From the IMG/VR virus record IMGVR_UViG_2925914267_000004: a stretch of DNA of 38,194 bases; one strand, written 5' to 3'. Positions 1 to 28,488 of this stretch are shown here, piece by piece; positions within the stretch are counted from its first letter, which is position 1; each line of letters opens with the position of its first letter. The DNA is from a virus (taxonomy: Duplodnaviria > Heunggongvirae > Uroviricota > Caudoviricetes). The position numbers were made by a program, and so were the translations under genes. The notes below the pieces were generated by a model. The model was given only the letters and a program-made list of their open reading frames with translations. It was not told the origin of the DNA and searched no databases.

Positions 1-993
1 CTAATCGATGGACAGTTTATGGACACTTTCAGCCAGCGGATTAAAGTTGATCGCGTCCTGTAAGAAGTCCGGCGAAAAATGAGCGTACGTCATTGTTTGC
101 TGAATCGTTGCGTGCCCCAGGATTCGTTGCAACGTAACAATATTTCCGCCATTCATCATAAAGTGTGTGGCAAATGTATGACGCATGACATGCGTAGCCT
201 GCCCCTTCGGCAAATCCGGTTTCACCTCCTGAAGAATCTCCCGGAACTTCAGATAATCAACCTGATACAATAACCCCGTTCGACGGGTTTTAATCAGAGG
301 CACGACCGAATCCGCCACAGGAACCGAACGGGATTTTCCGTTTTTGGTGTTAAAGAACGTCACCCGGTTGCCAACGATATGCTCTCCACGTAGTTCCGAT
401 GCTTCACTCCATCGGGCACCAGTAGAAAGACACAGAATGGCAACACGACGCGCATCCCCCTCCAGTCGCTCAAGAAGCCGTTCAATCTCATCATCAGAAA
501 GAAAGGCCATCTCTGTGTTCTGAACTTTCAGTTTTCGTATACCGCGTACAGGGTTCGCGTTGTGAAAGACCTCAGCTTCAATCAGCACCGTGAACATGGT
601 AGACAGTACACATAAGTCACGATTAATACTGGACGGCATTAATCCGGCCTGTAATTTCTCTGACCGATATTCAAGCATAAATTTTCGCGTCATCTGACTG
701 GCGCGAGGATCTCCCATTTCACGAACAACCTTCCCTAGCCTAACCCTGTAGCTATCCCCGTAAGCCTGATTACGCCCATCAAGCATCCACCACGCATCAA
801 GCAGCTCTGATAATCGCCGCTGATCAGCTGGCTTAGCCTGCCATGGCTTGTCATGAAAGTTCTGTAACACATACTTCTCAAACTCCTGAGCCTTTGATTT
901 CAGGGCAAAGATTTTTCGAATCCGCTTTCCTTCCGCCCCCTGCGGTCTGACATCGACCTGATAACGTCCGTCTTTGAGTTGCTTAATCGACAT
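1..993 (-). CDS. int: Tyrosine integrase (P2 Int-like site-specific recombinase)
   Basis: Track ORF 1..1008 begins at TTG; the in-frame ATG at 993 gives MSIKQLKDGRYQVDVRP. C-terminal tyrosine-recombinase signature HTFATHFMMNGGNIVTLQRILGHATIQQTMTYAHF. First gene at the prophage end, convergent with nothing upstream in the window. Confidence 0.9.
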   Translation of the reverse strand: MSIKQLKDGRYQVDVRPQGAEGKRIRKIFALKSKAQEFEKYVLQNFHDKPWQAKPADQRRLSELLDAWWMLDGRNQAYGDSYRVRLGKVVREMGDPRASQMTRKFMLEYRSEKLQAGLMPSSINRDLCVLSTMFTVLIEAEVFHNANPVRGIRKLKVQNTEMAFLSDDEIERLLERLEGDARRVAILCLSTGARWSEASELRGEHIVGNRVTFFNTKNGKSRSVPVADSVVPLIKTRRTGLLYQVDYLKFREILQEVKPDLPKGQATHVMRHTFATHFMMNGGNIVTLQRILGHATIQQTMTYAHFSPDFLQDAINFNPLAESVHKLSID

Positions 994-1062
994 GATTAGC
1001 CCCTCCAACGGATAAATTAACTAAACACTCCTTGCGATATGTAATTCGCTCAATGTGTAGAG

Positions 1063-1404
1063 TCAGCCAACATTGCGGCCTGATCGGGGTGATTTTTGGG
1101 TAATACCGATTGAAACCTGATCGCCCTCCGACTGAATAGATCCATCAAGAGAGAGAGCCGGAGCAATCTGCCCGGCGACAGGTAGCGTCTTATCTTTTAT
1201 TAGCCACAGCATGTATTTTTCAAAGCGATCGACTTGCAGAACCGCCTCAACGATTTTTGCTCTAGCGTTCTTTTGCCCCGATTCGTAATTCCTTATGGTT
1301 GCCAAAGACAACCCAGTAATATCCGCAAACTGCTTTTGTGTTAACCCTTCCGCCTTACGTATCTGACGTAACTTTTTTGCATAGTCTATTGACAAGATAA
1401 CCAT
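1063..1404 (-). CDS. Immunity repressor, HTH XRE-type (P2 C-like)
   Basis: 113-aa ORF with helix-turn-helix QKQFADITGLSLATIRNYESG, sitting immediately upstream of int and divergent from the early operon, which is the P2 repressor position. Confidence 0.8.
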   Translation of the reverse strand: MVILSIDYAKKLRQIRKAEGLTQKQFADITGLSLATIRNYESGQKNARAKIVEAVLQVDRFEKYMLWLIKDKTLPVAGQIAPALSLDGSIQSEGDQVSIGITQKSPRSGRNVG

Positions 1405-5941: not shown

Positions 5942-8557
5942 ATGACGGCAGAGTACATCAGGGACTGGCAACAACCACGCCACGCAGTGGGGCGTGAAGG
6001 AACGGGGATCCCCGCTCCTGAATCCGCGCTTTCCTCCTGGCTGGATGCCTACCGGGCAGAGAACGAGCGCCGCCAGGAAATGGCTGATGCGGCGTTCTCC
6101 GCCACGCCGCTGGACAACCTGATTAATAAAAGCCTGGACGCACAGGAAAAACAGGACAAAACCATCACACTGGCAGGAGACGCAAGAAAACAGGCACGCG
6201 GCGCGGTGGATGAAGCCATGGCCTCGCTGCGCCTGCTGCCGTCCTATCTGCGCGATCCGCTTATTCGCCACCTCTCCTTCCTGCGCAAAAAACAGGAAGC
6301 CGATCGCCGGAAAGGCAAAAAGAGCTGGCAGGCGGAACGCTATGCACGCGGAACCCTGCGCAAAATATTCGAACGTCTGGAGCGCACCGACAGCCGCTGG
6401 CTGACACCGGGTTATCGCGCCCTTGCCGGACGCGAACGCCTGGACGATTTGCTTTACCTGCCGCAGCTTAACAAGCACCAGATACAGACGCTGGCCACCA
6501 TGACGGCGGCAATGTTCAGCAGCACCTTTGAGACTCTCTGTGATGGTTTCGGTGCCAGAGATGGCGAGCTGACCATGGATGTAACGCTGAAGGCGTATCA
6601 GATGCTGGCCCGCATGGCGTTACACCTGCACGCCATGCCTCCACATTATGACGCACTGACAACAGACAAAGACCGGAGGAACGAACCGGACACGGAACTG
6701 CTGCCGGGCGCAATCCTTCGCCTGACCTGTGCGGACTGGTGGAAACGCAAACTGTGGCTGTTACGTTGTGAGTGGCGGGAAGAACAACTCCGCGCCGCCT
6801 GTCTGGTTTCCAGAAAAACATCACCCTATCTGAGCCAGGACGCGTTAAGCGAGTTTCGCGCACAGCGCGAGAAAACACGCGATTTCCTGAAAAGTTTCAT
6901 GCTGGAAAATGAAGACGGGTTCACGATTGATCTCGAGACGGTGTATTACGCGGGAGTAAGTAACCCGGTTCACCGTAAGGCAGAAATGATGGCCACCATG
7001 AAGGGACTGGAACTTCTGGCCGAAGCCCGTGGCGACAAAGCGGTGTTTCTGACTGTCACCTGCCCGTCAAAATACCACGCCACAACAGAGAACGGTCATC
7101 CGAATCCCAAATGGAACGGGGCCACCATGCGCGACTCCAGCGATTACCTGGTTAACACGTTTTTTGCGGCGGTCCGCAAAAAACTGAACCGCGACGGCCT
7201 GCGCTGGTATGGCATCCGCACGGTGGAGCCTCACCATGACGGCACCGTGCACTGGCATATGATGGTCTTTGCTCATCCGGAAGAAATCGACACCATTGTG
7301 TCCCACACCCGCGATATTGCCATTCAGGAAGACCGCCACGAACTGGGCAATGATATTACTCCGCGCTTTAAGGCGGAGTACGTCGACGGCTCAAAAGGCA
7401 CGCCAACCAGCTACATCGCCACCTACATCGGAAAGAACCTGGACAGCCACGCCGTGGATGGCATCGACCCGAAAACGGGCAAGCCACGCGTTGACCACGA
7501 AACCGGAAAATCAATGGCCGAGAGCGTGGAGCACGCCATCGGCTGGGCGCGCCTTCACCGGGTCCGCCAGTTCCAGTTCTTTGGCATCCCCTCCCGTCAG
7601 GTGTGGCGTGAACTGCGCCGCCTTGCCAGCCAGATGGCACGCAACCCGGAAGGCCCGCAACAGCTGAAGGATGACGCAATGGATGCGGTACTCGCTGCCG
7701 CTGATGCCGGGTGTTTTGCCACCTACATTGAAAAACAGGGTGGCGTGCTTGTTCCACGCAAAGACTACCTGATTCGCACCGCCTACGACCTCGCAGATGA
7801 GCTGAACGATTACGGCGAACAGAGCGTACAGATTTACGGGATCTGGTCGCCGCTCATCGGGGAGTCTTCCCGCGTGTGCACGCATCCGGATAACTGGAAG
7901 CTGGTAAGACGTAAACCGGAAGCGGAAGACAGCGCCCGCGAAAATGGTTTTGACCTTCAGGGCGGCCCTGCCGCCCCTTGGACTCGTGGCAATAACTGTC
8001 CCCGTGTACAGGAAACGGACAACAACGGGACAGAACAGCCGGAAGAACGGCCAGCACCGTGGCCGCAGCTTCCTGACGGCATTGAAGTGAATGAATGGAT
8101 GCGCTCACTGAAACGGCACGAACGCCGGGCGCTGATGCGTTCGCTGCGTGAAAAACCAGTAAATACCAGCAGCGGTGATACACCTGACCGGATGGCAGGG
8201 CATAAACAACCGCCAGACATACCAGTATCACCTGCCACTGAATGGAGAAAATCAGCCGGGGAACCGGGCATAAAACTGAGCGATGAACATATACAGCACC
8301 TGATGAAGACGGGAATGCTGCGTATTAATGGCCATGTACTGGAAGTCACTGACGGCAGACTGACACACCGTCGCGATCAGCGCACAGACAGGAAGGTGAG
8401 CCGCATCTGGGAACGCCTGAGCCGCAATCATGGCATCAGCGCAACTGAAATCAGGTACAACCCGCTCGCACACTACGTGGACATGCTCAGGAATATCGGC
8501 GTGGAGGCTTTACCCGCAGTCACAGAACACAGACATCAGGGAGATGAATCTCAGTGA
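5942..8557 (+). CDS. A: Rolling-circle replication initiator/endonuclease (P2 gpA-like)
   Basis: 871-aa ORF with the HUH-type motif VHWHMMVFAHPEE; the largest early gene, in the canonical A position. Confidence 0.9.
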   Translation: MTAEYIRDWQQPRHAVGREGTGIPAPESALSSWLDAYRAENERRQEMADAAFSATPLDNLINKSLDAQEKQDKTITLAGDARKQARGAVDEAMASLRLLPSYLRDPLIRHLSFLRKKQEADRRKGKKSWQAERYARGTLRKIFERLERTDSRWLTPGYRALAGRERLDDLLYLPQLNKHQIQTLATMTAAMFSSTFETLCDGFGARDGELTMDVTLKAYQMLARMALHLHAMPPHYDALTTDKDRRNEPDTELLPGAILRLTCADWWKRKLWLLRCEWREEQLRAACLVSRKTSPYLSQDALSEFRAQREKTRDFLKSFMLENEDGFTIDLETVYYAGVSNPVHRKAEMMATMKGLELLAEARGDKAVFLTVTCPSKYHATTENGHPNPKWNGATMRDSSDYLVNTFFAAVRKKLNRDGLRWYGIRTVEPHHDGTVHWHMMVFAHPEEIDTIVSHTRDIAIQEDRHELGNDITPRFKAEYVDGSKGTPTSYIATYIGKNLDSHAVDGIDPKTGKPRVDHETGKSMAESVEHAIGWARLHRVRQFQFFGIPSRQVWRELRRLASQMARNPEGPQQLKDDAMDAVLAAADAGCFATYIEKQGGVLVPRKDYLIRTAYDLADELNDYGEQSVQIYGIWSPLIGESSRVCTHPDNWKLVRRKPEAEDSARENGFDLQGGPAAPWTRGNNCPRVQETDNNGTEQPEERPAPWPQLPDGIEVNEWMRSLKRHERRALMRSLREKPVNTSSGDTPDRMAGHKQPPDIPVSPATEWRKSAGEPGIKLSDEHIQHLMKTGMLRINGHVLEVTDGRLTHRRDQRTDRKVSRIWERLSRNHGISATEIRYNPLAHYVDMLRNIGVEALPAVTEHRHQGDESQ

Positions 8558-9021
8558 TTAAATATTGTCGCCAGTGCGGCCGGGAGCTGCACTACAAGGA
8601 AAAATTTTATTTTTCAGATCACATCTGCTGCCGTTGCCGTGGACTGGCGTCGTTTGATGATGACGGTACTGAATCTGTCGGAAGGGAAAGAACACCTGTC
8701 GAACGCACCCTCTTCGAGCGTTACCCGGTATGGCAACTGATGATTGAGAAAGCCGAACGGCAGTGGAAAGCAACCCACCCGCAACCTCTGGCGGACGTCA
8801 TTACTGTAACCCGGTGCACAAAGGTCTCTGATGAACGCATCACCGAAATGCTGGCGCAGTATGACGACTTCAGGCCGGTTCAGATTGAAGAACGTGAGCT
8901 GATAGCCCTCCTTCAGGAAGTGCGCGAAGCACGACGCAGTGCCGCCTTACAGGCGGAAAAACAGACAGAAACGGGACTCACAAATCCCGTAAATGAGCAA
9001 AAAACGCGCCATAAAACATGA
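8554..9021 (+). CDS. Zinc-ribbon protein (CxxC-x16-CxxC), first gene of the A-Q cargo hotspot
   Basis: N-terminus CRQCGRELHYKEKFYFSDHICCRCRG. Starts at GTG overlapping the A stop, so the start is uncertain. Confidence 0.45.
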   Translation: MIKYCRQCGRELHYKEKFYFSDHICCRCRGLASFDDDGTESVGRERTPVERTLFERYPVWQLMIEKAERQWKATHPQPLADVITVTRCTKVSDERITEMLAQYDDFRPVQIEERELIALLQEVREARRSAALQAEKQTETGLTNPVNEQKTRHKT

Positions 9022-23231: not shown

Positions 23232-25334
23232 ATGAGTACCACAACACGAAAATTTAAAACCGTTATCACCGATACGGGTGCAAAAAAATTAGCTCAGGCA
23301 GCCGCGCCAGATGGTAAGCCTGTCCGCCTGACTCATATGGCCGTGGGCGACGGTGGCGGCACGTTGCCCACACCAGACAGTAAGCAGACCCGTCTGGTGC
23401 ATGAGGTGTGGCGACACACTGTTAATCGCGTCATCCTGGACGCAACACATCAGAACCGCATTATTGCGGAGCTGGTTATTCCTCCTGAAACGGGCGGATT
23501 CTGGATCCGGGAAATTGGTGTATTTGATGAGCACGGCGATTTGATCGCGGTGGGCAATACTGCGGAAAGTTACAAGCCAGCCGTTGCCGAAGGATCCGGA
23601 CGTGCACAAACATTTCGCACCATTCTGACCGTATCCAGCACTGCCACCGTGGCGCTTACCGTGGATAACACCATGGTGATGGCCACAGTGGATTACGTGA
23701 ATGACAAACTGAAAGAACATGAACAGTCACGACGTCACCCGGACGCCTCGCTGACCGCAAAAGGCTTTGTTCAACTCAGTAGCGCCACTAACAGCACGTC
23801 TGAAACGCAGGCTGCAACGCCGAAAGCAGTAAAAGCCGCGTATGACCTGGCTAACGCAAAATATACCGCTCAGGACGCCACGACGGCACGAAAAGGGATA
23901 GTCCAGCTCAGTAGTGCCACCAACAGCACGTCTGAAACGCTGGCCGCGACACCGAAAGCGGTTAAGGTGGTAATGGATGAAACGAACAAGAAAGCGCCCT
24001 TAAACAGCCCGGCGCTGACCGGAACGCCAACAACACCAACTGCGCGACAGGGAACGAATAATACCCAAATCGCAAGCACGGCTTATGTGATGGCCGCGAT
24101 TGCCGCACTTGTAGACTCGTCGCCTGACGCACTGAATACGTTGAACGAGTTAGCGGCGGCGCTGGGCAACGACCCGAATTTTGCGACCACCATGACTAAC
24201 GCGCTTGCGGGTAAGCAACCGAAAGATGCCACCCTGACGGCGCTGGCCGGGCTTGCTACTGCAGCAGACAGGTTTCCGTATTTTACGGGGAATGATGTTG
24301 CCAGCCTGGCAACCCTGACAAAAGTCGGGCGGGATATTCTTGCAAAATCGACCATTGCCGCCGTTATCGAATACCTCGGTTTACAGGAAACGGTAAATCA
24401 GGCTTCTGGAGCATTACAAAAAAACCAGAACGGCGCAGATATTCCGGGAAAAGATACCTTCACCAAAAATATTGGGGCCTGCCGCGCATATAGTGCAGGG
24501 CTGAATATTGGTGGCGATAGTCAGGCCTGGACAACCGCACAATTCATTTCGTGGCTGGAGAGTCAGGGGGCATTTAACCATCCTTACTGGATGTGCAAAG
24601 GCTCATGGGCTTATGCAAATAATAAGGTCATTACAGATACAGGTTGCGGAAATATTTGTCTTGCAGGTGCTGTGGTGGAAGTTATTGGCACTCGCGGCGT
24701 AATGACCATACGCGTTACCACGCCGAGTACGTCCAGCGGCGGCGGAATCACTAACGCTCAATTCACTTATATTAATCATGGTGATGCTTATGCTCCTGGC
24801 TGGCGACGAGACTACAACACGAAAAATCAACAACCTGCATTTGCTTTAGGGCAAACAGGAAGCACTGTCGGAAATGATAAAGCTGTTGGCTGGAACTGGA
24901 ATAGCGGGGTCTATAACGCAAGCATTGGTGGCGCAACAGCATTAATCCTCCACTTCAATATGAATACGGGGAGTTGCCCTGCCGTACAGTTCCGCGTGAA
25001 TTACAGGAATGGCGGTATTTTTTATCGTTCAGCGCGTGATGGTTATGGATTTGAGGCTGACTGGTCAGAGTTTTACACCACGACCCGCAAACCCTCTGCG
25101 GGAGATGTTGGTGCATACACGCAGGCAGAATGTAACTCAAGGTTTATTACAGGTATTCGCCTTGGCGGTCTGTCATCTGTTCAGACATGGAATGGTCCCG
25201 GCTGGTCTGACAGGTCAGGTTATGTCGTTACGGGTTCAGTTAACGGAAACCGTGATGCATTAATTGATATAGCTCAGGCAAGGCCAATTCAGTATTGCAT
25301 TAATGGGACGTGGTATAACGCGGGGAGTATTTAA
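23232..25334 (+). CDS. H: Tail fibre protein H (conserved N-terminal part plus invertible C-terminal part)
   Basis: 700-aa ORF; N-terminus [25 protein letters not shown] is characteristic of P2-type tail fibres. The hix-like crossover site lies in-frame at 24364-24389, encoding IEYLGLQE. Confidence 0.88.
23762..23990 (+). repeat. Tandem coding repeat in tail fibre H
   Basis: Two copies of a unit encoding [13 protein letters not shown](Q/L)AATPKAVK, about 132 bp apart. Confidence 0.6.
24364..24389. other. Hin/Gin-type inversion crossover site (left), inside H
   Basis: TTATCGAATACCTCGGTTTACAGGAA is the inverted counterpart of the site at 28409-28434 (reverse complement TTATCTAAAACCTCGGTTTACAGGAA), differing at 2 of 26 positions. 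Confidence 0.65.
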
Positions 25335-25336
25335 TT

Positions 25337-25501
25337 ATGATGCACTTAAAAAATGTTACTGCTGGCAACCCTAAAACAAAAGAGCAATACCAGCTAACGA
25401 AACAATTTAACATCAAATGGCTTTATACAGAGGATGGGAAAAACTGGTATGAGGAACAAAAGAACTTTCAGCCTGATACGTTGAAAATGGTCTATGACCA
25501 T
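25337..25501 (+). pseudogene. G: Tail fibre assembly chaperone G, 5' fragment (interrupted by IS)
   Basis: [55 protein letters not shown] closely parallels the P2 G N-terminus; the reading frame runs into a TGA that is the first triplet of the IS. Confidence 0.75.
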
Positions 25502-25565
25502 TGAGGTAGCCTGAGTTTAACGGACACTCCTTCCTGAAATAGAATGGCATCAGAAGGAGCTAATA

Positions 25566-25868
25566 ATGAGCAGAAAAACCCAACGTTACTCTAAAGAGTT
25601 CAAAGCCGAAGCTGTCAGAACGGTTCTTGAAAATCAACTTTCGATCAGTGAAGGCGCTTCCCGATTATCTCTTCCTGAAGGCACTTTAGGGCAATGGGTT
25701 ACCGCCGCCAGAAAAGGGCTCGGTACTCCTGGTTCCCGCACGGTGGCTGAACTGGAATCTGAAATTCTGCAACTGCGTAAGGCGTTAAATGAAGCTCGCC
25801 TTGAGCGAGATATATTAAAAAAAGCAACAGCGTATTTTGCACAGGAGTCGCTGAAAAATACGCGTTAA
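25566..25868 (+). CDS. IS3-family transposase OrfA (HTH)
   Basis: 100-aa ORF MSRKTQRYSKEFKAEAVRTV... with leucine-zipper-like C-terminus and an A-run slippery motif (about 25815-25822) near its end. Confidence 0.85.
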   Translation: MSRKTQRYSKEFKAEAVRTVLENQLSISEGASRLSLPEGTLGQWVTAARKGLGTPGSRTVAELESEILQLRKALNEARLERDILKKATAYFAQESLKNTR

Positions 25869-25903
25869 TCGAACAATGGCGACAACAATTTCCCATTGAA
25901 GCG

Positions 25904-26722
25904 ATGTGTCAGGTATTTGGTGTATCCAGGAGCGGTTATTACAACTGGGTACAGCATGAACCCTCAGACAGAAAACAAAGTGATGAGCGGCTAAAACTGG
26001 AGATTAAGGTGGCACATATCCGCACTCGCGAAACATATGGAACCCGGCGGCTCCAGACGGAGCTGGCAGAGAATGGCATCATCGTTGGTCGTGACCGACT
26101 GGCACGTCTTCGTAAGGAGCTAAGGCTACGCTGTAAGCAGAAACGCAAGTTCAGAGCGACTACGAACTCGAACCACAATCTGCCAGTTGCGCCAAATCTG
26201 CTGAACCAGACGTTCGCTCCTACAGCACCAAATCAGGTCTGGGTGGCGGACCTGACGTATGTTGCCACACAGGAGGGATGGTTGTACCTCGCTGGCATCA
26301 AAGATGTTTATACGTGCGAAATTGTCGGCTACGCCATGGGAGAGCGCATGACAAAAGAGCTGACAGGTAAAGCCCTGTTTATGGCGCTCAGGAGCCAGCG
26401 CCCACCTGCCGGGCTAATCCACCACTCTGATCGAGGTTCACAGTACTGCGCATACGATTACCGGGTCATACAGGAGCAGTTTGGTCTGAAAACATCAATG
26501 TCGCGTAAAGGTAACTGTTACGACAACGCTCCGATGGAAAGCTTCTGGGGAACGCTGAAAAATGAGAGCCTGAGCCACTATCGTTTTAATAACCGGGATG
26601 AAGCCATCTCAGTAATACGGGAATACATTGAGATTTTCTACAATCGTCAGCGTCGTCACTCTCGTCTGGGGAATATCTCCCCGGCAGCCTTCAGGGAAAA
26701 ATATCATCAGATAGCTGCTTAA
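25904..26722 (+). CDS. IS3-family transposase OrfB (DDE catalytic domain)
   Basis: 272-aa ORF in the -1 frame relative to orfA, with the usual IS3 OrfAB frameshift layout. Confidence 0.85.
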   Translation: MCQVFGVSRSGYYNWVQHEPSDRKQSDERLKLEIKVAHIRTRETYGTRRLQTELAENGIIVGRDRLARLRKELRLRCKQKRKFRATTNSNHNLPVAPNLLNQTFAPTAPNQVWVADLTYVATQEGWLYLAGIKDVYTCEIVGYAMGERMTKELTGKALFMALRSQRPPAGLIHHSDRGSQYCAYDYRVIQEQFGLKTSMSRKGNCYDNAPMESFWGTLKNESLSHYRFNNRDEAISVIREYIEIFYNRQRRHSRLGNISPAAFREKYHQIAA

Positions 26723-26768
26723 AAAAAGAACAAATGGTAGTGTCCGCTATTGCCAGTACACCTCACAT

Positions 26769-27137
26769 AACGGCGTTATTATTTGTATTGAAAAGGATGT
26801 TTCAGCAATTAATCCGGAAGGCGCAAGCGTCGTTGAATTACCTGATATTACAGCAAATCGCCGTGCTGACATTTCGGGTAAATGGATGTTCAAAGATGGC
26901 GTAGTGGTAAAGCGAACTTATACCGAGGAGGAGCAAAGGCAACAAGCGGAAAATGAAAAGCAGAGCCTGCTGCAGCTCGTCAGGGATAAAACCCAGCTGT
27001 GGGACTCTCAGCTACAGCTGGGCGTCATTTCCGACGAGAATAAACAAAAATTAACCGAGTGGATGCTCTATGCGCAGAAAGTCGAATCCACAGACACCTC
27101 CAGCCTGCCGGTAACATTCCCCGAACAACCAGAATGA
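26769..27137 (+). pseudogene. G: Tail fibre assembly chaperone G, 3' fragment
   Basis: Reading frame NGVIICIEKDVSAINPEGASVVELPDITANRRADISGKWMFKDG... continues the P2 G alignment directly after the IS and its CAT duplication. Confidence 0.75.
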
Positions 27138-27263
27138 GAAAGGCCCGTTATCGGGCCTTAATTTTACTCAGGCTTTTGTGGTCATCCAGGCTTTTCCATA
27201 TCCACATGGCTGCGGAGAGCAAGGAAATACAAAATAACAAAAATGATAATAATTGTGATGACA

Positions 27264-27749
27264 TTATAGCGACGTTTTCACATCCTCTGCACTGCTCTCT
27301 TTGCCGCTTTGTCCGTCTGGAACAGCGGGCCACTCAATATCCGTCTCGGTTGATGTATCAATACGCATAAGTAGCACTCGATATTTTTTCCATTCAGCCA
27401 GCACAGTGATTTCTGCTTCTGTCGCCATCCCTGCGTCAACAGCATCCTGCCGCCAGGCAATTTCTGTGTTCGCAATCCCCGCTAAATCCTTTTTCTTCTG
27501 CTCTTTTAATGCGATTAACTGCTCTGTTGTTGGTTCTGATACATCAATCCATGCGGGGAAACCAGATTCATCACTGCCTCTCTTCTTTCCCTCTGGCGGT
27601 CTTCCCGTAAACTCTTCATACATATCGTTTGTGACTGCCACCAAATCGTCAGGCCATGCGCCTGATTTTTCATAGTCCGGTTTCATGGATTCAAAGAAAA
27701 ACGTATTATTCCTGGCACTATAGAATATTTTACTGGACATGATTAACAC
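27264..27749 (-). CDS. Alternative tail fibre assembly chaperone (Tfa, G') in the inverted cassette
   Basis: C-terminus AEWKKYRVLLMRIDTSTETDIEWPAVP matches the conserved Tfa C-terminal motif; intact 161-aa ORF. Confidence 0.75.
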   Translation of the reverse strand: MLIMSSKIFYSARNNTFFFESMKPDYEKSGAWPDDLVAVTNDMYEEFTGRPPEGKKRGSDESGFPAWIDVSEPTTEQLIALKEQKKKDLAGIANTEIAWRQDAVDAGMATEAEITVLAEWKKYRVLLMRIDTSTETDIEWPAVPDGQSGKESSAEDVKTSL

Positions 27750-28408
27750 CCCACACCAATACAGAAGAATGGTTTAGAAACAGCACCCCCAGACCTTTCC
27801 ATTAACGTGACCTGCATATCGCGATCATTTAATCTTTTAACACCCGCAATTGCACTTGCTATCGAGTCACCAGCAACATTACAGGCTAACAAACCAAAGC
27901 AACGAACAGGCCAGCCAACAGGAAACGGGGCAGGTGCCCAGCCACTGGCATCAGTATTCCCCCAACACCATTGAAAAATGATGCCATTTGGAAAACGTAC
28001 CCAACCAGCATCAGCCATCGCCTGGGTAAAATCACTGTTTTTTGTATATCCCTGAATGCTCCATCCATTCCGGGGAATTAACTGCCTGATATTTCCATCC
28101 AAAGTAAATGCAAGCAGACGACGGTCAGAAATATTGCCTGCCGGAGACAATGCAACGTCTATGTAGTTCGCGCCATTTTCCATTATTCCACAAATGAGAG
28201 ACGACATAATCGCACCGCCAAATGAAAAGTCGACTCCATTTGCACTCCCTGCAACCGTGCTCTTGTTTCTGATGTGAATACCAGAAAAGCCATTATCTTT
28301 TTCAATAAGTAATTCATTCCCAATTAACGAGAGAATGCCCTTGATAATCACATCACCGTTAACCACCCCGCCATATGTTGATAACGCTTCCGAAGCTAAT
28401 TTTACAGT
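27743..28408 (-). CDS. Alternative tail fibre C-terminal cassette (H'v), with no start of its own
   Basis: The minus-strand frame is open from the crossover site (LGLQETVKLASEALSTYGGVVNGDVIIKG...) and is followed by the overlapping Tfa gene; track ORF 27743..28366 is the start-codon-limited part. Confidence 0.65.
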   Translation of the reverse strand, partial: TVKLASEALSTYGGVVNGDVIIKGILSLIGNELLIEKDNGFSGIHIRNKSTVAGSANGVDFSFGGAIMSSLICGIMENGANYIDVALSPAGNISDRRLLAFTLDGNIRQLIPRNGWSIQGYTKNSDFTQAMADAGWVRFPNGIIFQWCWGNTDASGWAPAPFPVGWPVRCFGLLACNVAGDSIASAIAGVKRLNDRDMQVTLMERSGGAVSKPFFCIGVGC

Positions 28409-28434
28409 TTCCTGTAAACCGAGGTTTTAGATAA
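28409..28434. other. Hin/Gin-type inversion crossover site (right), just upstream of the invertase gene
   Basis: TTCCTGTAAACCGAGGTTTTAGATAA closely matches the gix/hix consensus and is inverted relative to the site inside H. Confidence 0.65.
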
Positions 28435-28488
28435 TGGTCGATTTTGGCACGCATGGCATGATTGGCGCTTTTAAACAGGAGATCCAGA

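Follow-up and report, generated by a model that had tools for sequence, protein, structure and literature searches.

The stretch of DNA analysed here (the window) comprises the 38,194 nucleotides (nt) of IMG/VR virus record IMGVR_UViG_2925914267_000004, and this report concerns a copy of the insertion sequence (IS) IS600 that is located within G, the gene for a tail-fibre assembly chaperone, between positions 25337 and 27137. As read from its sequence, the window holds a nearly complete P2-family prophage of the P88-like type (Xuanwuvirus), located beside serS in an Escherichia coli/Shigella chromosome. G starts 3 nt past the stop codon of the 700-amino-acid (aa) tail fibre gene H, and what remains of its beginning shows in the list of open reading frames (ORFs) as a 55-codon ORF at 25337..25504. 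An alternative fibre tip (Hv') and an alternative chaperone (G') are found on the opposite strand, followed by a gene for a serine DNA invertase. The coordinates of these features are given in Table 1.

The inserted element was matched end to end (element positions 1..1264) at 99.8% identity by more than 1,700 E. coli records when 5,426 complete E. coli genomes were searched. The matching copies carry the RefSeq label 'IS3-like element IS600 family transposase', and it is on this annotation of near-identical copies that the assignment to IS600 is based. They sit on both chromosomes and plasmids, next to many unrelated genes. IS600 is present in many copies in this clade, a single E. coli genome holding as many as 43 places. 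The element opens with TGAGGTAGCC at 25502 and closes with GTACACCTCA at 26765. Its termini (TGAGGT...ACCTCA) are of the TG...CA type and its terminal inverted repeats are imperfect, where 6/6 of the end bases and 19/27 of the positions in an ungapped comparison are matched. Two E. coli copies were retrieved together with their flanking sequence; both begin and end with the same bases as the window element and differ from it by 2 nt only, at 25691 and 26713. One of the two, an independent copy within a fimD-type usher gene, has its own 3-bp duplication, CAC/CAC.

The two reading frames of the element, orfA and orfB, are joined by a -1 frameshift at an A7 slippery run, which gives an open 385-aa OrfAB. 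This product matches the NCBIfam profile NF033516 (IS3 family transposase) with 414.5 bits against a cutoff of 160, and the match spans positions 1-369 of the 369 in the profile. RefSeq likewise marks the matching IS600 transposase gene with 'programmed frameshift'. The copy in the window looks complete and is apparently still functional, that is, competent for transposition. IS600 is said to have been first described from Shigella sonnei, by Matsutani and co-workers in 1987.

The product of G is truncated after His55, where the TGA with which the IS begins serves as a stop codon. This stop falls before nearly all of the Caudo_TAP domain, which occupies residues 40-177 of the uninterrupted protein. 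The earliest in-frame start codon in the 3' fragment is an ATG at 26886, and with no in-frame start before it and a TGA after His55, no full-length G chaperone is possible. The ORFs at 25337..25504 and 26886..27137 should therefore be annotated as the two halves of one pseudogene. A look-up of the 55-aa N-terminal product and of the 83-aa C-terminal ORF returned no recorded protein.

When the IS and one CAT were deleted in silico, an open frame of 534 nt (177 aa) was obtained, which reads ...LKMVYDH/NGVIICIEK... across the insertion point (slash). Sister prophages were recovered from public assemblies by a look-up of the exact 700-aa fibre protein of the window, and the rejoined G was found to be 100% identical to the uninterrupted gene in two of them (L002 and L003). 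Another prophage, L006 (Logan ERR1937601), is 100.000% identical to the flanks of the IS over 5,975 and 4,505 nt (10,477/10,477 bases), and the two flank alignments overlap by exactly 3 nt, which corresponds to an empty site with a single CAT. A 3-bp match between flanks has by itself a chance of 1/64 of arising at random, but the empty-site allele settles that CAT/CAT is not a chance pattern, and its exact 3-nt overlap proves both the boundaries of the IS and the target duplication. Because an otherwise base-identical prophage has the empty site, the transposition of IS600 into G is seen from this alignment to be very recent. The same allele makes the insertion usable as a lineage marker.

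These results can be set against a preliminary description that had been made from the letters of the window alone. Its assignment of the element to IS600, which it had flagged as unverified, was correct, and the element boundaries and CAT/CAT duplication that it proposed are exact, as judged by the ends of independent copies and by the empty site. The TGA...TCA ends and imperfect terminal inverted repeats that it noticed were also observed here. Furthermore, its claim that removal of the IS rejoins the frame exactly (VYDH/NGVII) agrees with the gene in the sister prophages, and the comparison of G with uninterrupted relatives that it called for gave full identity in L002 and L003 and the single CAT in L006.

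The rejoined G matches the Pfam family PF02413 (Caudo_TAP) with 126 bits against a cutoff of 22.1. Its protein has 96.6% identity to Mu U' over 177/177 residues and 56.5% identity to Mu U. At the nucleotide level, the gene aligns with U' of Mu, D108, P1 and P7 in one piece at 100% coverage, with identities of 93.6-94.9%. In 672 E. coli genomes it is matched ungapped, at 100% coverage and up to 96.1% identity, by genes annotated as 'tail fiber assembly protein', and homologues of at least 90% identity occur in 710 of the 5,426 complete E. coli genomes with up to 6 homologous places per genome. On these alignments the split gene is the orthologue of P2 G and Mu U', a predicted tail-fibre assembly chaperone. 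A terminator-like hairpin lies directly 3' of G, so that no downstream gene would be exposed to polarity in either orientation of the segment described below.

The fibre gene in its present configuration belongs with this chaperone type, as residues 370-700 of H are 94.6% identical to the variable part of Mu S'. Two 26-bp crossover sites, both of which fall within a 56-nt inverted repeat, delimit an invertible segment (24376..28422) that is 4,047 bp long in the window and would be 2,780 bp with the IS left out. The invertase is positioned just outside the segment and shares 84.5% identity with Mu Gin. It is intact, as are both crossover sites. In-silico inversion joined H codons 1-388 to the alternative tip in a 607-aa protein (H'), and the intact 158-aa G' starts 3 nt later. 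This simulated H' is identical at 607/607 residues to the fibre gene expressed in another prophage, L007, and the junctions in L007 are the exact reciprocal recombinants of the two crossover sites of the window. Among the public assemblies, the cassette orientation was observed to be window-like in L002, L003, L006, L009 and L013 and flipped in L007, L008, L010 and L014. The reciprocal junctions in L007, together with the occurrence of both orientations, are direct evidence that the P88-type switch flips in nature.

Only one base, located in G', separates the window from L002 and L003 across 27138-29110, a region that takes in G', Hv', the invertase and the right crossover site. The window's G' variant is itself common in public data, and the exact G' protein is recorded in 36 blocks of a public collection. 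The preliminary description was borne out on two further points: the split gene is the chaperone (Caudo_TAP) of the fibre tip now expressed, and the inverted cassette retains an intact chaperone, which lies behind an alternative tip found here to fuse in frame. As a separate observation, a Mu-like prophage (L011; ENA ERZ27318635 k141_99318; gin-com-mom beside fliG-fliJ) was found to hold the same Hv'/G'/G cassettes, which illustrates that the whole fibre-switch module is exchanged between Mu-like and P2-like phages.

Table 1. Positions of the fibre switch, the interrupted chaperone gene and the IS600 element in the window.
Feature	Position	Strand	Details
Tail fibre gene H, present configuration	23232..25334	+	700 aa; constant part, residues 1-388
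Left 26-bp crossover site	24364..24389	+	TTATCGAATACC TC GGTTTACAGGAA; inside H
5' fragment of chaperone gene G (Mu U' orthologue)	25337..25501	+	Codons 1-55; ended by the TGA of the IS at 25502-25504
Left copy of target-site duplication, CAT	25499..25501	+	His55 codon; only one CAT at the empty sites of L002, L003 and L006
IS600 (IS3 family), full length	25502..26765	+	1264 bp; same orientation as the interrupted gene
Left terminal inverted repeat (TGAGGT...)	25502..25528	+	19/27 ungapped matches to the right end
IS600 orfA	25566..25868	+	100 aa; HTH_Tnp_1
A7 slippery run	25817..25823	+	-1 frameshift joining orfA and orfB
IS600 orfB	25904..26722	+	272 aa; HTH_21 and rve integrase core
Right terminal inverted repeat (...ACCTCA)	26739..26765	-	From the comparison of the two ends
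Right copy of target-site duplication, CAT	26766..26768	+	Adjoins the right end of the IS
3' fragment of chaperone gene G	26769..27137	+	Codons 56-177 and stop
GC-rich hairpin with T-run, terminator-like	27140..27159	+	Between the two convergent chaperone genes
Alternative chaperone G'	27264..27740	-	158 aa; Caudo_TAP; intact
Alternative fibre tip Hv'	27743..28422	-	After inversion fuses in frame to H codon 388, giving the 607-aa H'
Right 26-bp crossover site	28409..28434	+	TTCCTGTAAACC GA GGTTTTAGATAA; central GA matches the TC of the left site
Serine DNA invertase	28489..29079	+	196 aa; GTG start; good ribosome-binding site; Resolvase and HTH_7 at full length

We are confident in the overall reading that IS600 lies in codon 55/56 of G, within the Gin-type segment of a P88-like prophage, and probably causes a fibre defect that depends on the orientation of the segment. 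In the present orientation, the 700-aa S'-type fibre would be made without its cognate U'-type chaperone. Such an unchaperoned fibre would fail to fold and trimerise, and the virions released on induction would be without working fibres. Cells with the inverted segment would instead give infectious particles that carry the alternative H'/G' tip. This outcome for the two orientations, taken as a pair, is probable on the genes present, although it is held with less confidence than the overall reading. The host-range switch, two-way before the insertion, would now act as an on/off switch; the insertion is a plain loss-of-function lesion and not a new system.

The reasoning on fibre folding draws on work with related chaperones. 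Passages of PMC9608196 that cite North et al. 2019 state that in the tail fibre assembly protein (TFA) of Mu and a cyanophage homologue the variable N-terminal domain binds the fibre and the conserved C-terminal domain drives trimerisation. The Mu chaperone remains on the mature fibre according to the same source (again citing North et al. 2019) and to a passage of PMC11915804. From the literature on Mu and other TFAs we infer that G would be required for the folding of its cognate fibre. Substitution of G by G' was considered and rejected as unlikely, since no significant similarity was found between them; the best local match has 21% identity (E = 0.34) and is confined to the C-terminal part. 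Because the two chaperones are dissimilar and, in the passages of PMC9608196 cited above, it is the N-terminal domain that binds the cognate fibre, a fibre defect is a reasonable expectation.

Several points weigh against an orientation-dependent defect. A second U'-type chaperone in a Mu-like, P1-like or other P88-like prophage outside the visible 38 kb could complement in trans. The addition of a 1.27 kb IS to a genome of ~35.7 kb may bring it near the packaging limit; with the IS the prophage measures ~37 kb, which is within the 36.7-37.6 kb of other Xuanwuvirus records. Inversion of the enlarged, IS-bearing segment is assumed for the copy in the window. Lastly, the early and regulatory region may not be intact: its integrase, C and cox share just 29-50% identity with their P88 counterparts, and the C-terminus of gpA differs.

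Two of these points are also the basis of a possible, though considerably less probable, explanation in which the insertion is real but inconsequential, either with the prophage already non-inducible or defective or with a near-identical U'-type gene elsewhere in the genome complementing the loss. The frequency of U'-type genes with at least 90% identity among E. coli genomes (see above) makes complementation conceivable, as does the same cassette in the Mu-like prophage L011, but a second U'-type gene is absent from the 38-kb window. Divergence of the early region from P88 would fit a prophage that was already defective, whereas the late proteins from portal to D are all of full length against P88, apart from the split chaperone and from H, which has a different fibre cassette. 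Moreover, base identity to the L006 allele over 10.4 kb argues that the prophage has undergone no general decay. An assembly artefact, where a repeated IS600 copy was misplaced inside G by the assembler, is very improbable. A misplaced repeat would give neither a perfect 3-bp target duplication nor flanks that rejoin to the base, and both ends of the IS exactly match independent copies. What speaks for such an error is the high copy number of IS600 in E. coli genomes and the absence of the junction elsewhere: a 100-nt query across the IS600/G junction found 0 places covering at least 80% of its length in the 5,426 complete E. coli genomes, and an exact junction scan of species-representative genome contigs gave 0 matches. 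The latter result is no surprise, as that set contains very few E. coli/Shigella representatives. No paper was found in the literature on IS600 with tail fiber assembly and prophage.

It is also unlikely that the knock-out was selected, with loss of the S'/U'-type fibre favoured in the host lineage (for example, by avoiding re-adsorption to, or killing of, kin with the S' receptor) and G being a recurrent IS target. We noticed that a sister prophage with an identical 700-aa fibre (L004:8106-8631; GCA_965259065.1, contig CBDGWA010000024.1) has its chaperone gene broken elsewhere. After ...CAGCTGTGGG (at ~nt 400) this gene runs into an IS66-family end that is 100% identical to E. coli IS66-like tnpA ends, and the contig ends inside the IS66-family element. 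A second independent IS insertion in the same 534-bp gene is what would be expected under selection, but two anecdotal insertions are also expected by chance in IS-rich genomes, and G is intact in nearly all relatives. Next to the IS600 described here, the IS66-family insertion is an anecdote which does not show selection. The stronger proposal, that IS600 made a phase-variable on/off infectivity switch and that the U'-type gene is a recurrent, selected IS target in this lineage because of selection against S'/U'-type fibres, seems to us similarly doubtful. Two other Xuanwuvirus prophage records, NC_049344.1 and NC_049341.1 (Escherichia phages 520873 and 503458), have an insertion of IS100 (IS21 family) in the region matching window positions 27138-36000, which holds tail genes. 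IS insertions in this prophage family are thus not rare.

An IS knock-out of a prophage gene is routine in the IS-rich genomes of E. coli and Shigella, and nothing at this locus departs from biology that is already known. The practical consequence of the orientation-dependent defect is that the prophage should be scored as conditionally fibre-defective rather than intact. It also serves as a natural example of a lesion that is phase-dependent because it lies within an invertible segment, with no new mechanism being required.

The layout of the window places the integrase at the left edge and, at the other end, hok and ogr, beyond which lies serS of the host. This serS is at least 99% identical to 3,362 E. 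coli records, which places the host in the E. coli/Shigella clade. The junction between prophage and serS is present in 301 E. coli genomes, and no complete E. coli genome exceeds 97% identity to the fibre region. The gene order is shared by phage P88 and its relatives, at 94-96% identity to the window. Identity of the late proteins to P88 is mostly 92-100%, with lower values for O (80%), the constant part of H (85%) and E (75%). P88 is an inducible, plaque-forming phage (PMC5285337), and its paper (PMC5285337) makes no mention of an invertase or chaperone.

The tail genes U, T, E', E, FII and FI are located on the minus strand (29108-34699), between the invertase and D (34835-35965). This U-FI block is inverted relative to the canonical P2 order, and FI and D are divergent. 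We considered whether the minus-strand FI-FII-E-T-U block could be a crippling secondary inversion and rejected this, as the same layout is found in E. coli CD45, L002, L003, P88 and other Xuanwuvirus records. The reversed tail block is the fixed arrangement of P88-like (Xuanwuvirus) phages, viable P88 among them, and not a lesion.

In the replication module, gpA (region 5942-9021 of the window) is 871 aa long, and its alignment to the 940-aa protein of P88 covers only residues 1-852 of the latter. An overlapping 155-aa ORF follows it at 8554..9021 for which no Pfam or PADLOC match was found, and the C-terminal end of the module is unlike that of P88. ParM-like and partition genes at 9098-10370 are 99.7% and 95% identical to those of P88, and a hok/gef-type toxin gene is located at 36459-36596, near the right end of the prophage. 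With the ParM-like/partition and hok/gef genes, this integrated P2-family phage has maintenance functions of a plasmid-like kind. Between 10605 and 11411 (minus strand; neighbours to ~12000), a 268-aa DUF3800 protein matches PADLOC PDC-M04A, a candidate defence family, with E = 2.6e-35. It occupies the place of P88 gp19 and gp20 in the variable region adjoining the portal gene, which we take to be the P2 old/tin hotspot for antiviral cargo.

Compared with known systems, the element is like other IS600 copies in its 1264 bp length, 99.8% identity, TG...CA ends, orfA/orfB pair with an A7 -1 frameshift and 3-bp duplication. It differs from the common E. coli copies in its insertion site and in two point differences. 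The rejoined G resembles other Caudo_TAP proteins (lambda Tfa, P2 gpG and Mu U/U') in its full-length Pfam match and in its position directly downstream of the fibre gene, but the gene as found in the window is truncated at residue 55 of 177. For the prophage as a whole, the closest known system is P88 (Xuanwuvirus, Peduoviridae), in which the invertase is likewise followed by U-T-E-FII-FI on the opposite strand and next by D. The window differs from P88 in its integrase and immunity region (29-50% identity), in the cargo beside the portal gene and in the combination of fibre cassettes, where the tip and chaperone expressed in the window are the inverted ones of P88. P88 is also without the IS600 insertion.

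The invertible segment itself is like the G segment of Mu (S/U versus S'/U', with Gin) and the C segment of P1/P7 (with Cin) in having a Gin-like invertase and 26-bp sites, one of which is inside the fibre gene. As in those segments, two convergent cassettes are present, each with a fibre tip and a chaperone. The interrupted cassette of the window is of the S'/U' type of Mu (94.6% and 96.6% aa identity). However, the host element here is a P2-family phage and the second cassette is Hv'/G' rather than the S/U of Mu. In contrast to the Mu and P1/P7 switches, one of the two chaperones is split by an IS, so that working fibres should be made in just one of the two states.

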